From NCBI GenBank assembly GCA_024679065.1, contig JAGIQG010000009.1, forward strand, positions 90,396,001-90,460,000: DNA of 64,000 bases. The letters are read 5' to 3'. The position numbers were made by a program, and so were the translations under genes. This DNA comes from Sphyrna mokarran. Lineage: Eukaryota. Each line of letters begins with the position of its first letter. Position 1 is the first letter of the stretch. The notes beneath the pieces were generated by a model. It was given only the letters and a program-made list of their open reading frames with translations, had not been told where the DNA came from and searched no databases. This document shows, one piece after another, positions 4,641-58,957 of the stretch.

Positions 4641-4954
4641 TGTGGGATTGGGTTCATTTTCCTTAGGCAGCAGAATCAGAGGGAGAGGGAGAAGAGACAG
4701 CAGAATAGACAAACTGTTCATAGAGCGGATGAGGAGCTGGCGGGCTGTCACCAGGAGGCCCACTCAGGCCTTTTATGGAGCCCTCAACCAGTGTGTTCAG
4801 TGGTTCTGCATCACTGGGAGGTGGTCACTGAACTTACTACTAGTGCGTGCCTGCTAACTTGGCAACTGTCATTACACATTCATCTGCAATAATCAACAGT
4901 TACATCCAACTTTCATTCTCCACAATTACTCAGCAGCAAGGCCTAGCCACCGCA

Positions 4955-5205
4955 CATCTGGAAAGGGAAAAGACACTGAGGCCAGGACACTGGGGTTAAT
5001 AATAAACATCTGGAATGGGAAAGGGCACTGAGGCCAGGACACTGGTGTCAATAATAAACATCTGGAATGGGAAAGGGCACTGAGGCCAGGACACTGGGGT
5101 TAATAATAAACATCTGGAATGGGAAAGGGCACTGAGGCTAGGACACTGGGGTTAATAATAAACACCTGGAATGGGAAAGGGCACTGAGGCCAGGACATTG
5201 GTGTC
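4955..5205 (+). repeat. 52-bp minisatellite, left part (~5 copies)
   Basis: Unit AATAATAAACATCTGGAATGGGAAAGGGCACTGAGGCCAGGACACTGGGGTT. Confidence 0.92.
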
Positions 5206-5207
5206 TT

Positions 5208-7142
5208 TGTTATAATCCAGGTCAGAAACTCCAAGGTATTTCACGAAATCAGCCTAGACCTTAGGTTTTGCATTTTGAATTTGTTACGGGTAAGTATAAG
5301 ATGTTTCACTTCAGGTATGGTTCAAATAATCCACTAGGAAGCTTCTATCCTTCTGCTTTTCTTCTCTGTCAAAATACCTTTCAAACATGGTCACATTACA
5401 TACTCAGTGAATTTTCCTACTATTTGGTATATTCATCAAATAATTCACCTCACTCAATTTCCTTTTAATTTGATAAGGCCTAATAAATGTTGGCTTTTAA
5501 AGGTTCACTTACCAATGGTACCAGTACTTTATTCCCATTAGCTCCATTAGCAAAACTATGAATTTTTGATTTCTTATCCACTTCCTGTTTCATCACATGC
5601 TGTGCCACTTTTAAATGTTGTCTAATCAATTCAGTTGCTCTATTTAACCTTTCCCTAAAATTTGACACATAGTCCAATAATGTGGTCTCAGAATGCTGAC
5701 TCACCAAATTCTCAATCAATTTCAATAGTCCTCTTACCTCATGACCAAAAATCAATTCCAATAGATTGAATTTGGTTGATTCATTAAGCGCATTCCTGAC
5801 TGTAAAAGTTACAAATCCTCTGGATAATCTTGACAATGAGCCCATAACATTGTCTTTAAAGTTTGATGTCATCACATCCCTGTGATTCTGGATGGTATGC
5901 AGTTGATTTAAATTATTTTATTCCTAAGCTATCTATAACTTCCTTGAACAACTTTGATGTAAAATTTGATCCTTGATCTGATTGTATTTCTGTGGGTAGT
6001 CCATATAGAACAAAGAACAAAGAAAATTACAGCACAGGAACAGGCCTTTCAACCCGCCAAGCCTGCATTCACCACGCTGCCCAACTTAACTAAAACCACC
6101 TAAACGTCCAGGGACCATATCCCTCTATTCCCATCCTATTCATGTACTTAGCAAGATGCTCCTTTTTTTCCACTTCTACTATCTACCCCGGCAATGAATT
6201 CCAGGCAACCACCACTCTCTGTGTAAAAAATCTGCCTCATACATCTCCTTTAAATCTTGTCTCTCGCATCTTAAACCTATGCCCCCTAGTAATTGACTAT
6301 TCCACTCTGGGAAAAAGCTTCTGACCATTCACTCTGTCCATGCCTCTCATAATCTTGTAGACTTCTATCAGGTCTCCCCTCAACCTCCATCGCTCCAGTG
6401 AGAACAAATCAAGTTTGTCCTACCGCTCCTCATAGTAAATACCTTACATACCAGGCAATATCCTGGTAAATCTTTTCTGTACCCTCTCCAAAGCCTCCAC
6501 ATCCTTCTGGTAGTGTGACATCAGAATTGAACACTATATTCCAAGTGTGACCGAACTAAGTTTCTATAAAGCTGCAAAGTGACTTGCCAATTTTTAAACA
6601 CAATACCCCGGCTGATGAAGGTAAATGTGCCGTAAGCCTCCTTGACTACTTTCTCCATCTGCATTGCCACTTTCAGTGACCTGTGTATCTGTACACACAG
6701 ATCCCTCTGCTTATCAAAATCTGTATTAGATCTTCCAAAATGCATTACCTCACATTTGTCTGGATTAAACTCCAGTTGCCATCTCTCCGTGCAAATCTCC
6801 AAACTGATCTATATCCTGCTGTATTCTCTGATGGTCTTCATTACTCTCTGCAAGTTGGCCAATCTTTGTTTCATCCTTAAACTTAATAATCAATCCAGTA
6901 ACATTTTCCTCCAACTCATTTATATATATTGCAAACAGCACAATGTAGTAAAACATTTAAGTAATTTCTCTATAATCCTTTAGCTGTAATATTGCATAAT
7001 GGGATAGCTCTGGAAACTGAGTAGACACATCCCTTATAGTCAATAGATACTGAATCCCCCTTTTTGTTTTAATTAAGACTCGGATAAATAGTTCCTTAAA
7101 TGCTGGAATGGGTATTAAGGGCACTGGTTTTATCATCACTTG
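5208..7142 (-). mobile_element. Gypsy/Ty3 LTR retrotransposon remnant (integrase + 3' LTR), interrupted by CR1
   Basis: IKPVPLIPIPAF..F.RVLI..KTKRG.QYLLTI.D.STQFPE (ORF 6957..7169) and EST.F..ELIFGHEVRG.L.L (ORF 5480..5875); LTR ends ..TATAACA at 5208. Confidence 0.8.
6006..6945 (-). mobile_element. CR1 LINE 3' part inserted in the Gypsy integrase
   Basis: WQLEFNPDKCEVMHFG, RDL.VQ.H.SLK, LY..LVR.HLEY.VQF; short tandem-repeat tail at 6006-6025. Confidence 0.9.
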
Positions 7143-7422
7143 AAGCCAGGATATTGGGGTCATTAACAAACACCTGGAATCGGAAAGGGCACTGAGGCCA
7201 AGGCAGTGGGATCATTAATAAACATCTGGAATGGGAAAGGACACTGAAGCCAAGGCACTGGAGTCATTAATAAACATCTGGAATCGGAAAGGGCATTGAG
7301 ACCAGGACACTGGAGTCATTAATAAATATCTGGAATGGGAAAGGGCACTGAGACCAGGACACTGGGGTCATTAAACATCTGGAATAGGAAAGGGCACTGA
7401 GGCCAGGACACTGGGGTCATTA
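7141..7422 (+). repeat. 52-bp minisatellite, right part (~5.5 copies)
   Basis: Same unit as 4955-5205. Confidence 0.9.
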
Positions 7423-7448
7423 AAATATATTTGTGCTCTTCCTATAAT

Positions 7449-8232: not shown

Positions 8233-9684
8233 TCTTTTCTTATAACCCAATTTATTGAAACCCTATATCCATCACTGTGAGTATGCCACCTTCCTCTATC
8301 TCAGATTCTGTGGTCTTCCCCTACTCACTAATATAGAGACAAATCATGAGGGAGGGGGTGAACGCTGAGTGTCTTTTGCCCTCTCAGTATCCTCCAAACA
8401 GAGGCACTATCCAGTATGTATCCCATCCTAATCCTAACCATTCCTCCAGCTTTGCAATACAGTGGATATGGTGCAGTTCATGACCATGTTAGCAGAGGAT
8501 GCTAGGACACTATTACACTATAGAGAAAAACAACTCCCATTCTGACACCTTCACCCAGAGACAGCTGACTCCACAGAAAGCTGAATTCTAATTGGCCAAT
8601 TTGGGCTTTCATCTGGTTTGTACTTGCATATCCTGTATTTCTGGCCTCTTCAGGACTGGTTTCCGCTCTTGGGACTTTCCAACCCATGATATCTCATAAT
8701 AAAATGTTACCCTATCAAGAGTAATCCTAAGAGTTTCGCTGTGTTATTATCTATAGTAATGTTAGAATGTTCCAGTAACTGTTAATAACCTCACCCCATT
8801 CCATCTGATGTCCAAAAATATATTTAATCTATAAATGTCATTACAAAATACTTCATTTATAAATGTAATTACAAAATAATTGCATGGAAAATTACAAAAT
8901 AATTCCACTTTTTTAACTCTATGCAATTTTAATATTCTTGATATTTACTGAATACATTTCCATATCAAGCATACAGGCTGAAAGCAAAATATTTCAAATT
9001 GAATATGAAGCAAGTGCAATAGAATTCATTTCTATTGTGAGTAGAATAGCATGTCCCACTCTCAGGTGTTTCAATACAATTTCAAAGTTGCTGCCATTCA
9101 CATTGTGTATTCCATGTGGGACCTACAGCCTGAGGGGCTCTGCAGTAAACAATTTCCAGGCCCTCCATGTACAATGATTGAAGGACACCCTGGAAGATAC
9201 TCCTCACATTAATTCTCGTCTGACCCCAAACCAGATTGTACCTGTGCTTTCCAGTGTTACTGTACCAATATAGAATATTCATTTGTAAGGTGTTTATTAT
9301 ATTCACATTGTCACTTAGTGAATTATTTTTGAAGGTTAGCCGTCCATCCAATATTGAAAAGTTCAGCAGCCAATTTATGTGAGTCTTTTGGTGGTGTAGC
9401 ATGGGGAAGGATGTTGACCACTGATTTTTTTGGTATGTTTAACGTATCTTCACGTCCATAAAATGTTTTTTATTCCTTGGGGAATAGTGAGGGGAAGTAA
9501 TGGAAGAACTTTCAAGTTGATTATCAGCTGTTGAACTCTCCAGCCATGGCCAACAAGTCTTGGCATTGAAATTGAACCCGGAGCTTCTAGTTGAGTGGTA
9601 ACAGTGCTACCATTGAACAACAGGATCTCCACACCACTGATATTAATTGTATTTAATTGCATAGAGATTATGGACATTTCCAGA

Positions 9685-15092: not shown

Positions 15093-15452
15093 CCCAGCAA
15101 CTCATGACTCCTCTATCTGATTGGCTGTAGACAGCCAAGCTACTGTTTTCACATCATTCTGCTATTAGTTAGATTTCACAATGTGGAATTAGGTTACCTT
15201 CAGAGACAGGGACTTTCCATCAAAATCTCCAATTACCAGCCACACAACCTGTTCCTTCACAACACTACACAATCTACTGGAGTCAGTGTCAATCTCCATT
15301 CCAGTCTTAGAGACAGGGACTTTCCATCAAAATCTTCATTTACCAGCTTCACACAACCTGCTCTTCCTCAACACAATACAAACTACACTTACCTGGTATA
15401 ATAACAGGAGTCAATGCTGATCTTCATTTCATTCCAGGGACAGGGATTTTCT
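15093..15452 (+). promoter_or_regulatory. Distal X1-X2-Y module (10-bp spacer) followed by tandem NF-kB sites
   Basis: CCCAGCAACTCATG (15093-15106), TGACTC, CTGATTGGCT (15117-15126); GGGACTTTCC at 15209 and 15316, GGGATTTTCT at 15443. Confidence 0.6.
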
Positions 15453-15874: not shown

Positions 15875-18648
15875 GGACAGAATTTTCCATTCTGTGGACT
15901 AACTCCAGTGACAGGTAGGAAAATGAGTTTGATTCCCTGGATATTGGGAAGGGTTCTTGTGCTAGTTTGTCCATGGTTCAGTTCATTGTAAATGCATCAA
16001 TGAGGAGCTGATCAAATCTCATGACAGAGCAGACATGAGATTCAATCATGGTATGGATTTGAAGGTCCATGTTTAAAAATATTCCCCCCGCAGCCCCGTC
16101 CACTCCCCCACCCCCTGCCAGCTCCTCCACGCACCCCCACCTCACACACACACACAGTCATTCTCTGCAGTTTAAACCTTGTAATCTCCCTCAGAGGAAA
16201 CAAATCCTTTCCTCCATGTTTAGTGACAGCTCCCTGGAAAGACTCCTTCAGGCAGTCTGGGACTGGTGGGAGATTCTTGACTTATGGGACAGAAGCTGGA
16301 GATCCACCAGTCAGTGTGCTGGTCTGGGAGGAGATCACCAGGAGATCAATACCTGTGACCCTCAGAAGAGGATTGAACTGTAGTGCAGGCAGAGGATGAA
16401 TGATCTCAACCGTTCTACCAGAGTAGGTCAACCTTCTCACTCTCAACTGACTCACTTCTAACATCATCAGGTATTCACAGGATCACAATCCTCAGGAATC
16501 TCACACATGACTAACTGAAGGGACATCAGCACTGATTGTCTCACTGATGCTTCAACGTTTTCACCCTCACTGAGAGCACTCAGCACACACAGCAGGTATT
16601 CACGCTTCTCATCTCTTTTTTACCCCTGGTGCTTTCAGTTTATTTATCAGATTTTAGGCAGATCATGACCTCCCACAGCAACAGGGGAGATCTCACACTG
16701 GAGTGGGAATGCCAGGGTTAAGGCCACTCTCTCCCTACAAGGAGCAGAAGGCAGAGCTGGCCTGAGAGAGCAGGAGGTAGAGCTGGGCTGAGAGAGTAGG
16801 AGGAAGAGCTGGCCTGAGAGAGCAGGAGGAAGAGCTGGCCTGAGAGAGCAGGAGGGAGAGCTGGCCTGAGAGAGCAGGAGGCAGAGCTGGCCTGAGAGAG
16901 CAGGAGGCAGAGCTGGCCTGAGAGAGCAGGAGGCAGAGCTGGCCTGAGAGAGCAGGAGGCAGAGCTGGCCTGAGAGAGCAGGAGGCAGTGCTGGCCTGAG
17001 AGAGCAGGAGGCAGAGCTGGCCTGAGAGAGCAGGAGGGAGCTAGCCTGAGAGAGCAGGAGACAGAGCTGGCCTGAGAGAGTAGGAGGCAGAGCTGGCCTG
17101 AGAGAGCAGGAGGCAGAGCTGGTCTGAGAGAGCAGGAGACAGTGCTGGCCTGAGAGAGCAGGAGGCAGAGCTGGTCTGAGAGAGCAGGAGGCAGAGCTGG
17201 CCTGAGAGAGCAGGAGGCAGAGCTGCCTGAGAGAGCCTGGACCGTTCTTGCACAAAAGGCAAGATCAGCATCTCCTAATAAGCCAGTGAGAGTCTGTGCA
17301 GTTTCTGGGTCTTCATGGAGTCCCTCTGGCATATGTTCCACCAGGAAAGGCATGAAAGCAATAGGCCCTTCTTCACCTCCTACTCTGCTTGAAAGTCATA
17401 AAAAAGGCAGTATTGCCTGATTATTTCATGCTACCTGCATCTTTGTGCTTCTATAGATGAGAGACATGATTGAATATTAACCTGCAATGATCACCTTCCA
17501 TCGCCAAGCTAAGGGGAGTTATTGTCTGGTATTTTTGACTTTGGGATTTTCCAGTCTCGCCGAAAGCAGTTCCCATGTAATGGGGTCCCTGGCAGTGTGG
17601 CGAGTGAGAAACACAAATGGCTATTGAATTCAGTGGGACTAGAAGATCCCAGTGACAATCAATGCAAATCACCTCCACCATCGGAAATCCCTCAGTGGAG
17701 TGAACTAGAAAATCCCGGTCATTGTGAATCCCTGGGATAGCCCTCATTCCAGGTATTTCAACACAAGATCCTCCCTTGCAGCTAAAACACATCATGAAGG
17801 ATCACATGTGTCTGAAGGTCCTCAAAAGCATCACCCGTGACCCCCCCTTCTCCTTCGCCCCTCCCTCTTCCACATCCTCCTTCCCCCCTCTCCATTACCC
17901 CAACACCTCAGGCACAACAGCACATTCACAAAGGGGATTGGATCTGAATGAGTACATGCAGCTTCTATCAACCTCAGTCAGAACACTGCCACCCAACATC
18001 TGGTGTCCAAATCCTTCCATTAACATAACGTGTCTCAGTTGAGCTTTGTCCTGAAGTGGAAATTATTAGAGTGTTCCTTCAATCAGTAAGAAAGGACAGT
18101 AATGGATGATTCCCAGAAGCACTCAGATCCTTACTCTAGCAATTCTTTACAAAGTTACTTTCCTACAGTGTCATTGCATCAAGCTGTCGAAATAGTGTTG
18201 CTCCGATTCCACTTTGAGAGCAGTTTCCAGCCCTCTCCTGTCACTATCCACATCCTTCTACCCTCCTTGATCCTTAACAAACCCATTCCCCAGATCACTC
18301 TCCTACTTCCCCCTTTAATCATAGAACCCATCTTCATTGTTATTGATACTCCTCTCTCTAATCTATTTTCTGCTGATATCCCCATGCTCCACATTGACCT
18401 CACCCTTGAAGCCCCCATGCACAGTGACCTACAGGAATCCCCCCACCCATGAGACCACCTGATGTCTCCCTCTTCAAACCTGGACTGGGACTAAGACATG
18501 TACGCCAGGCACAGCCCTATTGTATAGTTAAATTCTGGCTCCAACACTGTGGTACCTTTTAAAGTGGTTGAATCCCACATTACTAGTGCTGCCAGCGCCG
18601 TTGGGAGTTATCCCAATTTTCCTGGTGGCAGCAGGAGAATCATGTCCC
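15875..18648 (+). mobile_element. PIF/Harbinger-like DNA transposon relic with Myb/SANT-like ORF remnant (~16205-16430)
   Basis: Imperfect TIRs GGACAGAATTTTCC / GGAGAATCATGTCC (11/14); remnant FSDSSLERLLQAV...CRQRMNDL resembles Harbinger Myb-like proteins. Confidence 0.5.
16751..17237 (+). repeat. 26-bp G-rich minisatellite, ~19 copies
   Basis: Unit GCAGAGCTGGCCTGAGAGAGCAGGAG; explains ORFs 16647..17353. Confidence 0.97.
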
Positions 18649-18965: not shown

Positions 18966-19252
18966 CAGTTGAAATATGATATATTGCCTTTTATAAATTC
19001 AGGAAAACCTCCCAGCTCTCATAATCTGTGTCCCTTTCATCACCAGTAACGTGAGTTTAATGAATGAAACAGGAAGTTATTGCAGTGTTAGTTTGATTGA
19101 AAACTCTCCCAAAGAATATTTCTTTAAATGTTGTGGGTGTCTGAATTTGGAGAGAGTCCAGGGTAAGTGTGAGAGCAGACAGGAACACACAAAACCCACA
19201 GCTTCTGTTTGGGCAGCTGGCATCCTGACTGTGGACAGGTTCAATAGGCTGT

Positions 19253-19296
19253 TACCAATAGGAATTTAGATCACCAGACTGTCATCTGTTGCTGAG
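19253..19296 (-). promoter_or_regulatory. Distal X1-X2-Y module
   Basis: Minus strand CTCAGCAACAGATG (19296-19283) with TGAC, 20-bp spacer, CCTATTGGTA (19262-19253). Confidence 0.65.
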
Positions 19297-19844
19297 AGAC
19301 ATTCTCTCCTGGAGCTCACATTTTATCACAACACTTCTAAATAACTCAGTCCCTTTGCATCTCTCGGGTGAGTTGGTGATCCAGCTCCCTGAGCTTAGCT
19401 GTGGTGAAATACCTCAGTAAAACAGTTTGCGATATATGGACACTAACCCCAGATACAGGGCTGTCCCATCACAGGTCAACACTCAGAGCATCTTCACAAG
19501 GAGAAACAGACCTGGACACAAAACAATCCCTTCCTGGCTGGAAATGGGGACAGTCTTTGCATCATTTTGATCTTTTAACTTCCTGCTGGACAGTAATCTG
19601 AGGGAAATTTTTATTTTAGTGCAGCTAGTCTGGTTTCAACAGGAAAAGATAATTAATGCAGAAAATCAGAGCCTAATGGTTTGAACCAAGAATGTTATCA
19701 GATCTTAGTGTAGTTAAGGACACTCTGCACTGTTACGGTGTAGAAGAAGCTCATTCAGCCCATATTGTCTGCATTAGCTATCGAATGAGCAACTTTTCTG
19801 CCAGTTTCCTGTATTCTCTCTGTAACAGGTGATGTTGTGGCATT

Positions 19845-24947: not shown

Positions 24948-25232
24948 GTGGTGGAGGGAGTAATGAAGGGTCTCCTCATTGTGAAGGGAGTAATTCATAA
25001 GGACAGTGTAGTGCTCAGCCCCCCAGCATATTGTTATGGACAGATGCATCTGCACCAAGTTGATAGAAGACCGAAGGATTTAACAAAGGGGAAATGCAAA
25101 TTGGTGCCAATTGCAAGTCATTTAGAGTAGAGTTGGGGAAGATCTTATAATCAATAATCTGGGACAATAAAAGGTGCCATTCATGTACCCTACAGTGTTT
25201 GTGCTAATAATGAAATTTTTTGTATTGAAATA

Positions 25233-25297
25233 TAACCTCAGAAAAACATTCTGCCTGGCAACAGATGACATGTCCCATTTTTAAAATTTCATTGGCT
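25233..25297 (+). promoter_or_regulatory. Distal S-X1-X2-Y module (candidate RFX/CREB/NF-Y/CIITA enhancer)
   Basis: TAACCTC (S-like) -14 bp- CCTGGCAACAGATG (X1, 25254-25267) with TGAC X2 half-site, 20-bp spacer, TTCATTGGCT (Y, 25288-25297); kB-like GGGATTTTCC at 25382. Confidence 0.7.
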
Positions 25298-25544
25298 AAG
25301 TATGTTTGTCTTTATAACGTATTAACACCACTTGACAGATTAAGCAATCGCAGTAAAATATTGACTTGCTGTTTGTAGTTGGGGATTTTCCATTCATGCC
25401 CTTCCCCCTCGCTGCAAACTGGAACCCAAGAGAAACTCTTTGCAGCTCTGTGTTTCTTAATCTAGAATAACCAATTCTCAACAATAAACTCCACTTCCTC
25501 CACCTGTTCTCTGGAACAAGTTCCCTTTGAACACCACTCACTTG

Positions 25545-25830
25545 CTCCAAATAAACAGAGTACCTGCTATGTGTACTTGCATGGCTCCAAGCAACACCAG
25601 CTTTTTTGTGGGACATGTCGAACATTCCTTATTTACTAAGATTCCCATTCTCATCTTTTTTTCCGGTACATAAATGATTGTATTGCTGCAACTTCCTGTT
25701 CTCACTGTACACAAGGAATTGAGATGACTTCTTTCCAATTGTCACCTTTCTCTCATCTTCACCTATTCCCTGACCATTCCCACCCTTAACTTCCCTCTAT
25801 TCTGTTTTCGGGGAAGACTATTAAGGAACA
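25545..25830 (+). mobile_element. Penelope-like RT fragment
   Basis: AM.T.MAPS...FVG.VE..FRYI.DC remnant. Confidence 0.55.
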
Positions 25831-29609: not shown

Positions 29610-30480
29610 GCATTAAGACCATAAGTAATCATACATATGGACTAAAACAATGGAAACAAGAACTGCAGGAGATCATCCATCAACTCCAAACTTACTGTTT
29701 TCAATAAGATCAAGGCTGATTGTGGTTTAAATTTCCTGCTTTTTCCTGTAAATCTTGATCCTTTGAATTTAAAAAGATATCTAACTCACTCATATTTAAT
29801 AGTTCACTAAGCTTCATAGCTCACTGTGAAAGAAAATCCCAAAAGTCAACAGTTCTACATTTAAATGGAGACTTTTTTTTGAAATCATGGCCCACAATTC
29901 TAGATTCTCCCATAAAAGAAAACATCCTCTCCTGTTAACTATCCCCTCCACCTCAGAATCTTGTCACAATACAATCACCTTATTTGTGAACCTCAATGAA
30001 TATAGGCCCAATCTGCTTAACATCACCTCATAAGACAATTCCATCAACTCAGGAATCAATTTAGTGAATCTTTGATTTGCTTCTAAGGTGACTCTAACCT
30101 TTATGTATAATTGTAACAAGAGTCCTACCTTTATATTCCCTCCTTTGCAGTGCAACTAAAATTCCAATTATTTTCCTAATTCACCACACCTGTTGCTAAC
30201 TGTGATTCATGTGCAAGAATAATCAGATCCCTCAAAGCAGTCTGTTTAAGTCCTGTTTTATTTTGCATGCTAAAACAGACTTCACATTATATTCCATTTG
30301 CTAATTTTTTAAATCACAGGTAGAGGTGGGAACATCAGGGTGGCAGCATGGGCTTGTTGGGCCGAAGGGCCTATTTCCCGTGCTGTTTTGTTCAAATACT
30401 TTTAGAAATCCTAATACATTATATCTACTGATTTCCTTTTTCCCACCCACTACCTTTTCAAAGAACTTGTGAATATCAGT
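29610..30480 (-). mobile_element. Highly decayed CR1 with a short 3'-end fragment of a younger CR1 family (+, 30316-30392)
   Basis: QRFTKLIP..LSYE.LSRLGLYSL (ORF 29964..30155). Confidence 0.65.
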
Positions 30481-31371
30481 CAGGTACATGTGTCCAATTC
30501 TGCTATTCTCTGGCTGATGCTTGGGACTTGATCTTTTGTGACCATGGTAGGGTTACCTTCACCTCAAGTTCAGCACAACTCTAACCACTTGATATTATTA
30601 AAGACAGCCCAGTGATTCAGCCAGGAACCTCAATTCAAGCCTGCTCAGTAAAGCACTTCAGTCAAATTAAGTGTTTCCCCAGTAAAAGTTTCTTCCTTGT
30701 GATTATTCAGATTCAATTAGAAACCAAGAGGCACTTCCTCAATTTGTTTACTCAGCCAATACTTGGAGAAACTCTCTCAGGACATTGATACAAATGCCTA
30801 GTTATTCTAACACTAATTCCCTAGTTATAGGATAGTTATTCTGTGACTGTCTAGTTATCTAATGATAGAGCAAGGACAGTAAGCCAACTGGGATTTATTT
30901 CCAGTCTGACAGGCACAGATTTAGTGTGAACAGAAAACTAAATTGGTCTCCTTCCCAACCAGAGATACTGTTCCGCCTGATTCTGTCATTGCTCTGGTAG
31001 CCAGCTATATTTTATTGAATCACCATTGATTCTAAATTGAGTAAGCTACTTTGAATGGTGGTGTAGTTTTGTGGCTATAAATCAAGATGTGGTCAATAAT
31101 CTTACTGGGGAGTTTGAATTGGGTATTGCAGGATACCTAGGCCTCTAGCCCAAGTTTTGTACTGTAAGACAGTTGTTAGAAACGTACACACCAGAAAGGG
31201 GACTCATAACTAAAGCCAAGTGCACCAGCCTCTTACCGAGCAGAGAAGAAAGAGAATTTCTGCATTGCTCCAGTGATTTGATTGTGGAGGCTCCAGGGTG
31301 ATTAATTGGGGGGAATGAAAAGCTTTTAAATTACTGTAGTGAGTGCAGCAACAGCAAAAGTACAAGTGATC

Positions 31372-31377
31372 TTTAAT
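31372..31377 (-). terminator. Candidate polyadenylation signal ATTAAA for the MHC IIB gene (alternative AATAAA near 31011)
   Basis: Hexamer ~460 nt after the stop with U/GU-rich sequence downstream; no transcript evidence. Confidence 0.3.
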
Positions 31378-31835
31378 CAAATTGGTTCCACTATGACAGA
31401 CATTCAAAGATTAAAAATCAAAATCTGCATAAAATCATTTAGATACTAAATTGGACTAGTAAATAATGTAGATTTCTAATCATTTACAACAAAGAAACTA
31501 AAACAGAAAGATTCAGCCTGCCACACAGATATGATACAGAGATCAGTGCTGGCTGTATCACATCTGGGTATAAGGAAATTGGGAAGGTGTCACTCAGGTT
31601 GGCAGCAAGCTATACACTGATTATATTCAGTTTAGTTGTGTATTTAACATAAATAAGCTGCAGTGTAAAAATATCCCATATCAGCAAAATGTTAAATTGC
31701 AAGTAATCAAAAGCTGAGTCAAGCAGCATGAACTGTAATCACTCTGGATTCTGAGTCAGGAAGAGTTAAAGATGCATTTAAAGCTGTTCCATCTTGTTGT
31801 TCCAATATCTCCAATCACATCCATGAGTGGGTCAG

Positions 31836-31861
31836 TTAACTTACAGCTGGACCCATCAGAC
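31836..31861 (-). CDS. mhc2b: MHC IIB exon 6 coding part RLMGPAVS*
   Basis: Acceptor TCTTTGTTTCAG, in frame with exon 5, TAA at 31838-31836. Confidence 0.75.
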
Positions 31862-58709: not shown

Positions 58710-58957
58710 CTTTAAATACAGATACTGACCAATCACAACGGAGCATAAAGATTGACCAATCACATACCAACACACTGACCAATAAGTAGCAGGAAAATCA
58801 TCCAATCAAATCTATACATCCGGGGAATAGGGACCAATCAGCATCAAGAGCTCCGGGAGACAGCGGAGCCAATCAGAGCTTTGAATGGGCAAGCGGGATC
58901 ACGGATAGTAACAAGCCAGTCAGAGACGGGAATTAGTAATCGTCATCTGTTGCCATG
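58710..58957 (-). promoter_or_regulatory. MHC class II proximal promoter: X1 (58944-58957), X2 TGACG, variant Y box (58914-58923), six inverted CCAAT boxes, TATA-like TATTTAAA (58711-58718)
   Basis: Sense strand CATGGCAACAGATG-ACG.. vs HLA-DRA CCTAGCAACAGATG-CGTCA; 20-bp spacer then CTGACTGGCT; CCAAT on + strand at 58729, 58756, 58779, 58802, 58834, 58869. Confidence 0.85.

Follow-up and report, generated by a model that had tools for sequence, protein, structure and literature searches.

A distal S-X-Y-kB module beyond an MHC class II beta gene of a cartilaginous fish, a probable RFX/CIITA enhancer among related modules of the locus

In a window of 64,000 nucleotides (the whole stretch of DNA analysed, G000:C1548:90,396,001-90,460,000, to which positions without a contig name refer), a complete S-X-Y-kB module, named module A, lies 3' of an intact MHC class II beta gene. 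It is probably a distal enhancer that would use RFX, CREB, NF-Y and CIITA with an NF-kB input, like the S'-Y' enhancers of mammals. Human and mouse have established enhancers of this distal RFX/CIITA type. The enhancer option of the original prediction, as a candidate, is supported at the sequence level by a cluster of sibling modules, a motif grammar restricted to the locus, survival in a decayed unit, occurrence in four other organisms and location outside repeats. Membership of module A in the distal S'-Y' class is likely, because its X box, Y box and location agree with the class in sequence and position, with only a half-site for X2, and the module is probably functional. Its features are as follows.

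25233-25239, + strand: S-like box TAACCTC, read directly
25254-25267, + strand: X1 box CCTGGCAACAGATG, predicted RFX site
25265-25271, + strand: X2 position, ATGACAT with a TGAC half-site, predicted CREB/ATF site
25288-25297, + strand: Y box TTCATTGGCT, an inverted CCAAT, predicted NF-Y site
25382-25391, + strand: NF-kB-type site GGGATTTTCC, 128 bp after the start of X
25200-25828, + strand: block around module A, alignable at 77% identity to a decayed fourth unit

Re-reading of the sequence found the S, X, Y and kB elements on the + strand where the original prediction had placed them, and agreed with it that X is identical to an HLA-DRA word at 13 of 14 positions and is accompanied by TGAC, a 20-bp spacer and a kB site about 85 bp on. 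The gaps are 14 bp from S to X, 20 bp from X to Y and 84 bp from Y to kB. The 14-mer used for the comparison was the word supplied by the original prediction, which we take to be the HLA-DRA X box. That 14-mer, followed by CGTCATCTC, appears as an XBP1 probe in the accessible part of PMC4806502. By a promoter-trained matrix, the X box of module A scored 21.9, the highest among the listed modules. TGAC immediately 3' of X is common to modules A, A', B, D and G and the beta promoter of the window, and two paralogs of module A have TGAG or TGAT in its place, this being a half-site only with a variable fourth base. The S box consensus is a mammalian one, with the box expected within about 16 bp upstream of X. 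A RACY word was located 20-22 bp before X in five of the eight distal families (a post hoc count, with a background of 0.043 per 3-position band), and the locus's own promoters are without RACY at the -20 to -22 offset.

The beta gene occupies the opposite strand of the same window, with the following features.

31836-58657, - strand: MHC class II beta gene, likely target of module A
58657-58555, 54931-54674, 52089-51808, 43514-43398, 40205-40176 and 31861-31836, - strand: beta coding exons
30364-31861, - strand: terminal beta exon with 3' UTR, extending at least to 30364
58914-58957, - strand: beta promoter X-Y module (CATGGCAACAGATG, 20 bp, CTGACTGGCT), 33.7 kb from module A

Direct exon scanning identified the gene (Pfam MHC_II_beta, E 7e-5; C1-set, E 1e-24). 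The genome-wide search with Pfam MHC_II_beta gave no match, though the exon matches on direct scan, and beta genes across the locus were mapped via the beta-2 exon. A 1509-nt contig of run X2, presumed to be RNA, spans 30364-31861 with 0 differences and is spliced, since its loose end matches exon 5. As the last exon reaches at least 30364, module A lies about 5 kb past the mRNA end. Among the pieces listed for run X2 none spans module A, and none of the listed runs that contain the module is recorded as RNA; these results bear neither way on transcription from it. The in-frame stop codon at 31836-31838 confirmed that module A is about 6.5 kb past the stop, and its + strand orientation, against the - strand of the gene, confirmed that it is inverted. 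The claim that module A is better than the gene's own promoter module held for the consensus match, X being 13/14 against 12/14 for the promoter X (58944-58957, - strand) and the Y core ATTGG against ACTGG; it went no further, because six further ATTGG boxes between X and ATG of the window's beta promoter make "better" a mere consensus score. Beta promoters of the locus carry 6-11 ATTGG boxes between X and ATG, while the alpha promoter has its Y box alone. One paralogous beta promoter has a perfect Y. The promoter of the second beta gene (G000:C1548:90,195,801, - strand) has a good X with no ATTGG at the usual 23-bp offset; judging from its sequence, small insertions appear to have displaced and damaged the Y box, and this gene may rely more heavily on distal modules.

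In the 1.06 Mb around the module we found three alpha-beta pairs arranged in tandem and all encoded on the - strand, together with a beta pseudogene that has an X-Y module of its own and what is left of a fourth beta 3' end. The alpha chain of the locus presumably resembles shark class II alpha. Module A is 33.7 kb from the beta promoter and 87 kb from the next alpha promoter. No alpha gene follows the two last copies of module A (sequence examined to 89.596 Mb), so the module moves together with beta 3' ends. In its arrangement of genes the locus agrees with the elasmobranch class II region as far as it is described in the accessible part of PMC10751288, and with the likeness of the alpha chain this makes the animal probably a shark. 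The genome also encodes an RFXAP-domain gene and CD74; a genome search with the RFX5 C-terminal Pfam family gave no match, and its control likewise matched nowhere. Tandem arrays lie amid the modules at 4954-5201, 7141-7423 and 16742-17236, two with a period of 52 and one with a period of 26 (19 copies), and similar arrays occur in other units.

Module A belongs to a cluster with a recurrent X-Y-kB layout, which the original prediction overlooked. It is one of eight distal families, of which A, A', B, D, E and F are located on the 3' side of beta genes and C and G upstream of alpha genes. The window carries five distal modules, namely module A and the four below, and most beta-side modules are in + orientation.

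8554-8680, + strand: module A', alpha-promoter-like X and spacer, Y, kB at +117
15093-15325, + strand: module D, spacer between X and Y shortened by 10 bp, GGGACTTTCC twice (at 15209 and 15316), 5 copies
19253-19296, - strand: module B, X-20-Y, no kB, 5 copies at 99-100% identity
26343-26468, + strand: module E, X and Y parted by an 82-bp insertion with an 11-bp direct repeat

The insertion in module E is present in the window copy alone and the two paralogs are intact; the split E reads as a natural loss-of-spacing allele. We scanned Y offsets with a matrix trained on promoter X boxes alone, and the results showed that, among 179 X-like sites, offsets of 22-24 occurred at 24 sites (6 of them promoters) and an offset of 13 at 5 sites, with at most 3 in any other bin. 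The spacer shortfall of module D is exactly 10 bp, about one helical turn. Around module B, 251 bp (19150-19400, - strand) occur at 99-100% identity in 5 copies. One B copy falls within a tandem duplication of 22 kb, which begins 5.5 kb left of the window at an assembly gap of 100 N; the same duplication is found in the next unit without a gap.

The kB site is placed 114-141 bp after X in five of the eight families (A, A', D, F and G), and no kB site was found within 170 bp in the seven promoter modules. Among 108 kB-type sites in 864 kb, 15 had an X-like box no more than 150 bp upstream, all of them at 114-141 bp (background 0.6%), and 14 of these 15 belong to modules A, A', D and F. Genome-wide, the X-Y-kB pattern gave 18 matches, 16 of them in this locus; it was built from A, A', D and F plus the alpha promoter, so that 14 of the 16 locus matches are circular, and the held-out family G, upstream of alpha genes, supplied 2 X-Y-kB matches with kB at +131. 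Similarity among A, A', D and F outside the motifs was not significant in any of 18 segment tests (the lowest being 7/300 and 14/300 shuffles), so the kB layout either arose repeatedly or is the sole survivor of a common sequence. Homology of A and A' outside the motifs, plausible by eye, was rejected because 58 of 300 shuffles reached its score. As the layout recurs in unrelated sequence at one locus, selection seems hard to avoid as an explanation.

To these layouts the copy counts can be added. The pattern RGCAACAGATG-N23-AYTGG matched 3 times in the window, and none of 100 shuffles gave any match; the X box alone, with up to 2 mismatches, was a weaker case, 2 of 100 shuffles reaching the 3 matches of the window. 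In 2.77 Gb, we found four copies of module A (100, 92, 93 and 82% identity), all located 3' of a beta gene or beta remnant; repeat counts from this genome DNA search are lower bounds. A local repeat mask showed the sequence of module A to be unique outside the beta 3' blocks, and with four copies at one locus it lies outside any transposable element. X-N23-Y gave 19 matches in 2.77 Gb, 10 of them inside the 0.57-Mb locus (3 A, 5 B and 2 beta promoters), where 0.002 would be expected from the outside rate, and the reversed control gave 0. Of the matches outside, we inspected 5 of 9 for X-N23-Y and 1 of 2 for X-Y-kB. Four outside the class II region have no clear gene start and are probably due to chance. 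A paralogous S-X-20-Y pair (G000:C1548:85,891,237 and 86,046,367, - strand) lies near C1-set exons at a distance of 4 Mb from the class II genes, with no clear gene start behind it.

Conservation was then compared between units and organisms. In the paralogs of module A (n=4), 3 of 14 X positions vary, and ATTGG and kB are invariant in 4/4. In the runs of four other organisms (4 of the 18 runs listed), the 241-bp module A was present at about 93% identity; the 22 variable positions listed across these four include none in X or ATTGG, and the kB site has one substitution (25390) in one of the four. Motifs were not significantly more conserved than flanks, either among the paralogs (5/173 against 145/2417 variable columns, p 0.055) or among the other organisms (1/29 against 21/212, p 0.22), and the identity of module A between units falls at the 33rd-51st percentile of 170-bp windows. 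Neither comparison amounts to a strong test of conservation, since the relatives are too close and the units were homogenised by recent duplication.

The decayed fourth unit offered a further comparison. Its same-strand alignments to 21.8 kb of unique sequence comprise four blocks of at least 200 bp, a 56-bp piece and the last exon; three of the four blocks hold A, D and A', and the fourth adjoins E. Only 8.3% of the unique sequence is alignable, yet it contains 3 of 4 module X boxes (p 0.002), a test that is confounded if blocks moved or were converted, the D block being 97% identical. The D block in the fourth unit could, from its sequence, have been transferred recently. The Y core is gone from the fourth A' copy; like the split E of the window, this decay among siblings speaks against the enhancer reading.

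By analogy with mammals, RFX would bind the X box, CREB/ATF the TGAC half-site and NF-Y the Y box, and the fixed 20-bp X-Y spacing would hold these factors in register. CIITA would dock on the RFX/CREB/NF-Y platform and evict nucleosomes, again as inferred from mammals. Module A would then contact the promoter of its likely target, the beta gene, 34 kb away, and it may also reach the next alpha promoter at 87 kb. Some 85 bp past Y, the kB site could add an NF-kB input from B-cell or inflammatory signals, which promoters lack at that position. A wider proposal, which we put forward tentatively and which may well not hold, is that the class II locus of cartilaginous fish is run by a dedicated X-Y-kB cluster, a locus control region for CIITA and NF-kB that was duplicated along with every beta gene, with at least one member from a duplicated alpha promoter and one whose spacer is one helical turn short.

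We considered it unlikely that module A instead serves as a CIITA-driven promoter for a non-coding or antisense RNA, transcribed on the + strand towards the beta 3' end. S-X-Y modules at real promoters point to the start site, according to the accessible part of PMC4374748, and the + orientation shared by most beta-side modules would agree with such a promoter. There is no TATA-like word within 500 bp of module A to accompany them, and the AATAAA at 25483, which lies 227-242 bp after X and has a counterpart in 4/4 copies, would likely end a + strand transcript early. The layout of module A also resembles that of the invariant-chain promoter, in which X-Y is followed by kB. Against this likeness, five unrelated families have the common layout and nothing common downstream, no Rfam match was found in 7000-32000 and none of the seven open frames tested near module A matched Pfam. 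An enhancer RNA is compatible with the enhancer reading of module A.

Slightly less probable still is the idea that module A is the left-over, inactive promoter of a deleted, inverted class II gene. The X box is identical at 13/14 positions to beta-type promoter X boxes, and module A' followed by module A on the + strand gives the order of an alpha-beta pair. For A', the X box matches the alpha promoter at 13/14 and the spacer is alike (0/300 shuffles reach the score), and the beta pseudogene elsewhere in the locus retains an intact module. Module A itself fits poorly: its spacer is unlike any promoter (32-269 of 300 shuffles reach the score), as is its downstream sequence (33-94 of 150). No class II exon, leader or 5' UTR was found within about 450 bp of it, where the six intact promoters of the locus have their ATG about 180-446 bp after X. 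Searching the window from 1 to 31700 by tblastn with six exon peptides gave a best E of 0.024 with none credible near module A, and nhmmer with profiles of the sequence downstream of alpha and beta promoters gave nothing better than E 1.3. The original prediction's deleted-gene option thus found neither exon, 5' UTR nor promoter-downstream remnant in its favour, and its suggested class II remnants were not seen in the stretch covered by tblastn. Module A also has a kB site, which all promoters lack, and is retained where adjacent unique DNA is lost. A 30-codon frame 327 bp after X, open in 4/4 copies and faintly like the end of a C1 domain, was rejected as a chance finding (tblastn E 3.6, no Pfam match). 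In sequence, the relic-promoter idea fits the sibling A' (8554) and the beta pseudogene at 90.076 Mb. That pseudogene (G000:C1548:90,075,872, - strand), 21.7 kb upstream of the third alpha promoter, has a stop in its beta-1 exon, no beta-2 exon found and an intact X-20-Y, with leader-like and beta-1 remnants behind the module. A promoter origin and a present enhancer function of module A can coexist.

Similarly improbable is a chromatin boundary or loop anchor, bound by RFX/CIITA between alpha-beta units like human XL9. Module A does lie between units in every copy, and several human X-like elements bind CTCF in the accessible part of PMC7866136, but a full Y box and a kB site are features of an activator. 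Chance, or membership in a transposable element, has next to no probability: LINE and SINE fragments are abundant around module A, but the four copies confined to this locus (a lower bound if it were a repeat), the uniqueness outside beta 3' blocks, the 0 matches in 100 shuffles and the 0.002 X-Y matches expected in 0.57 Mb refuted both.

The enhancer reading of module A places it beside several known human elements. Human distal S'-Y' modules include DRAe at -2.3 kb, Ii S'-Y', Ii Y''-S'', #2, #4, #6 and #8 (accessible parts of PMC2677874, PMC1802633 and PMC7866136), and module A resembles them, as described there, in the S-X-X2-Y order, as far as an S-like box and an X2 half-site can show it, the 20-bp X-Y gap, the distance from start sites and the presence of several per locus. 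Unlike them, five to eight modules are packed here into 30-55 kb 3' of each beta gene and copied with the gene, and one family has a spacer 10 bp shorter. A further feature of this locus is that five of the eight families have a kB site at nearly the same distance from X. Binding has been demonstrated for the mammalian modules, while module A is known from predicted sites. Class II promoters have an X-Y gap of 20-22 bp in the accessible part of PMC4374748; module A shares this gap range with the HLA-DRA-type promoter, together with 13/14 of X and the Y core ATTGG. It differs from such a promoter in having no gene behind it and in lying on the opposite strand to the class II genes, and its X2 is a TGAC half-site and its S-X gap 14 bp. 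With the XL elements and the DR/DQ and XL9 super-enhancers (HLA-DRB1-HLA-DQA1), it shares an intergenic class II location, and XL elements were proposed to coordinate the locus; an X box alone defines them, and CTCF binds several, whereas module A has Y and kB (accessible part of PMC7866136).

No description of distal class II enhancers in cartilaginous fish was found in a literature scope that left subscription journals and supplements outside, and the words promoter, enhancer and regulatory are absent from the accessible part of PMC10751288. The kind of element is known; new here are the dense cluster copied with beta genes, the fixed-offset kB in five of eight families and the short-spacer family. 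If the modules are enhancers in the oldest lineage bearing an MHC, long-range class II control would date to early jawed vertebrates, and if the mammalian S'-Y' enhancers descend from the shark cluster, long-range CIITA control would be as old as the MHC. The fixed kB coupling and the short-spacer variant would be natural experiments on enhanceosome geometry.

Some observations were made outside the beta 3' blocks. A C1-set exon (G000:C1548:89,629,216-89,628,950, - strand) lies 150 kb beyond the cluster, with class I-related chains as its best solved-structure matches; no X-Y module was found near it. A copying of the kB layout from the invariant-chain promoter was considered and found no support, as a scan of the CD74 locus (80 kb, 82 X-like sites) gave no X-20-ATTGG-kB module. 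Near CD74 on the opposite strand (G000:C446:72,965,414-72,978,085, + strand), three X boxes are followed by TGAGTCA, with a forward CCAAT 13 bp after X, and a fourth X box is without CCAAT; this set forms a second short-spacer layout.
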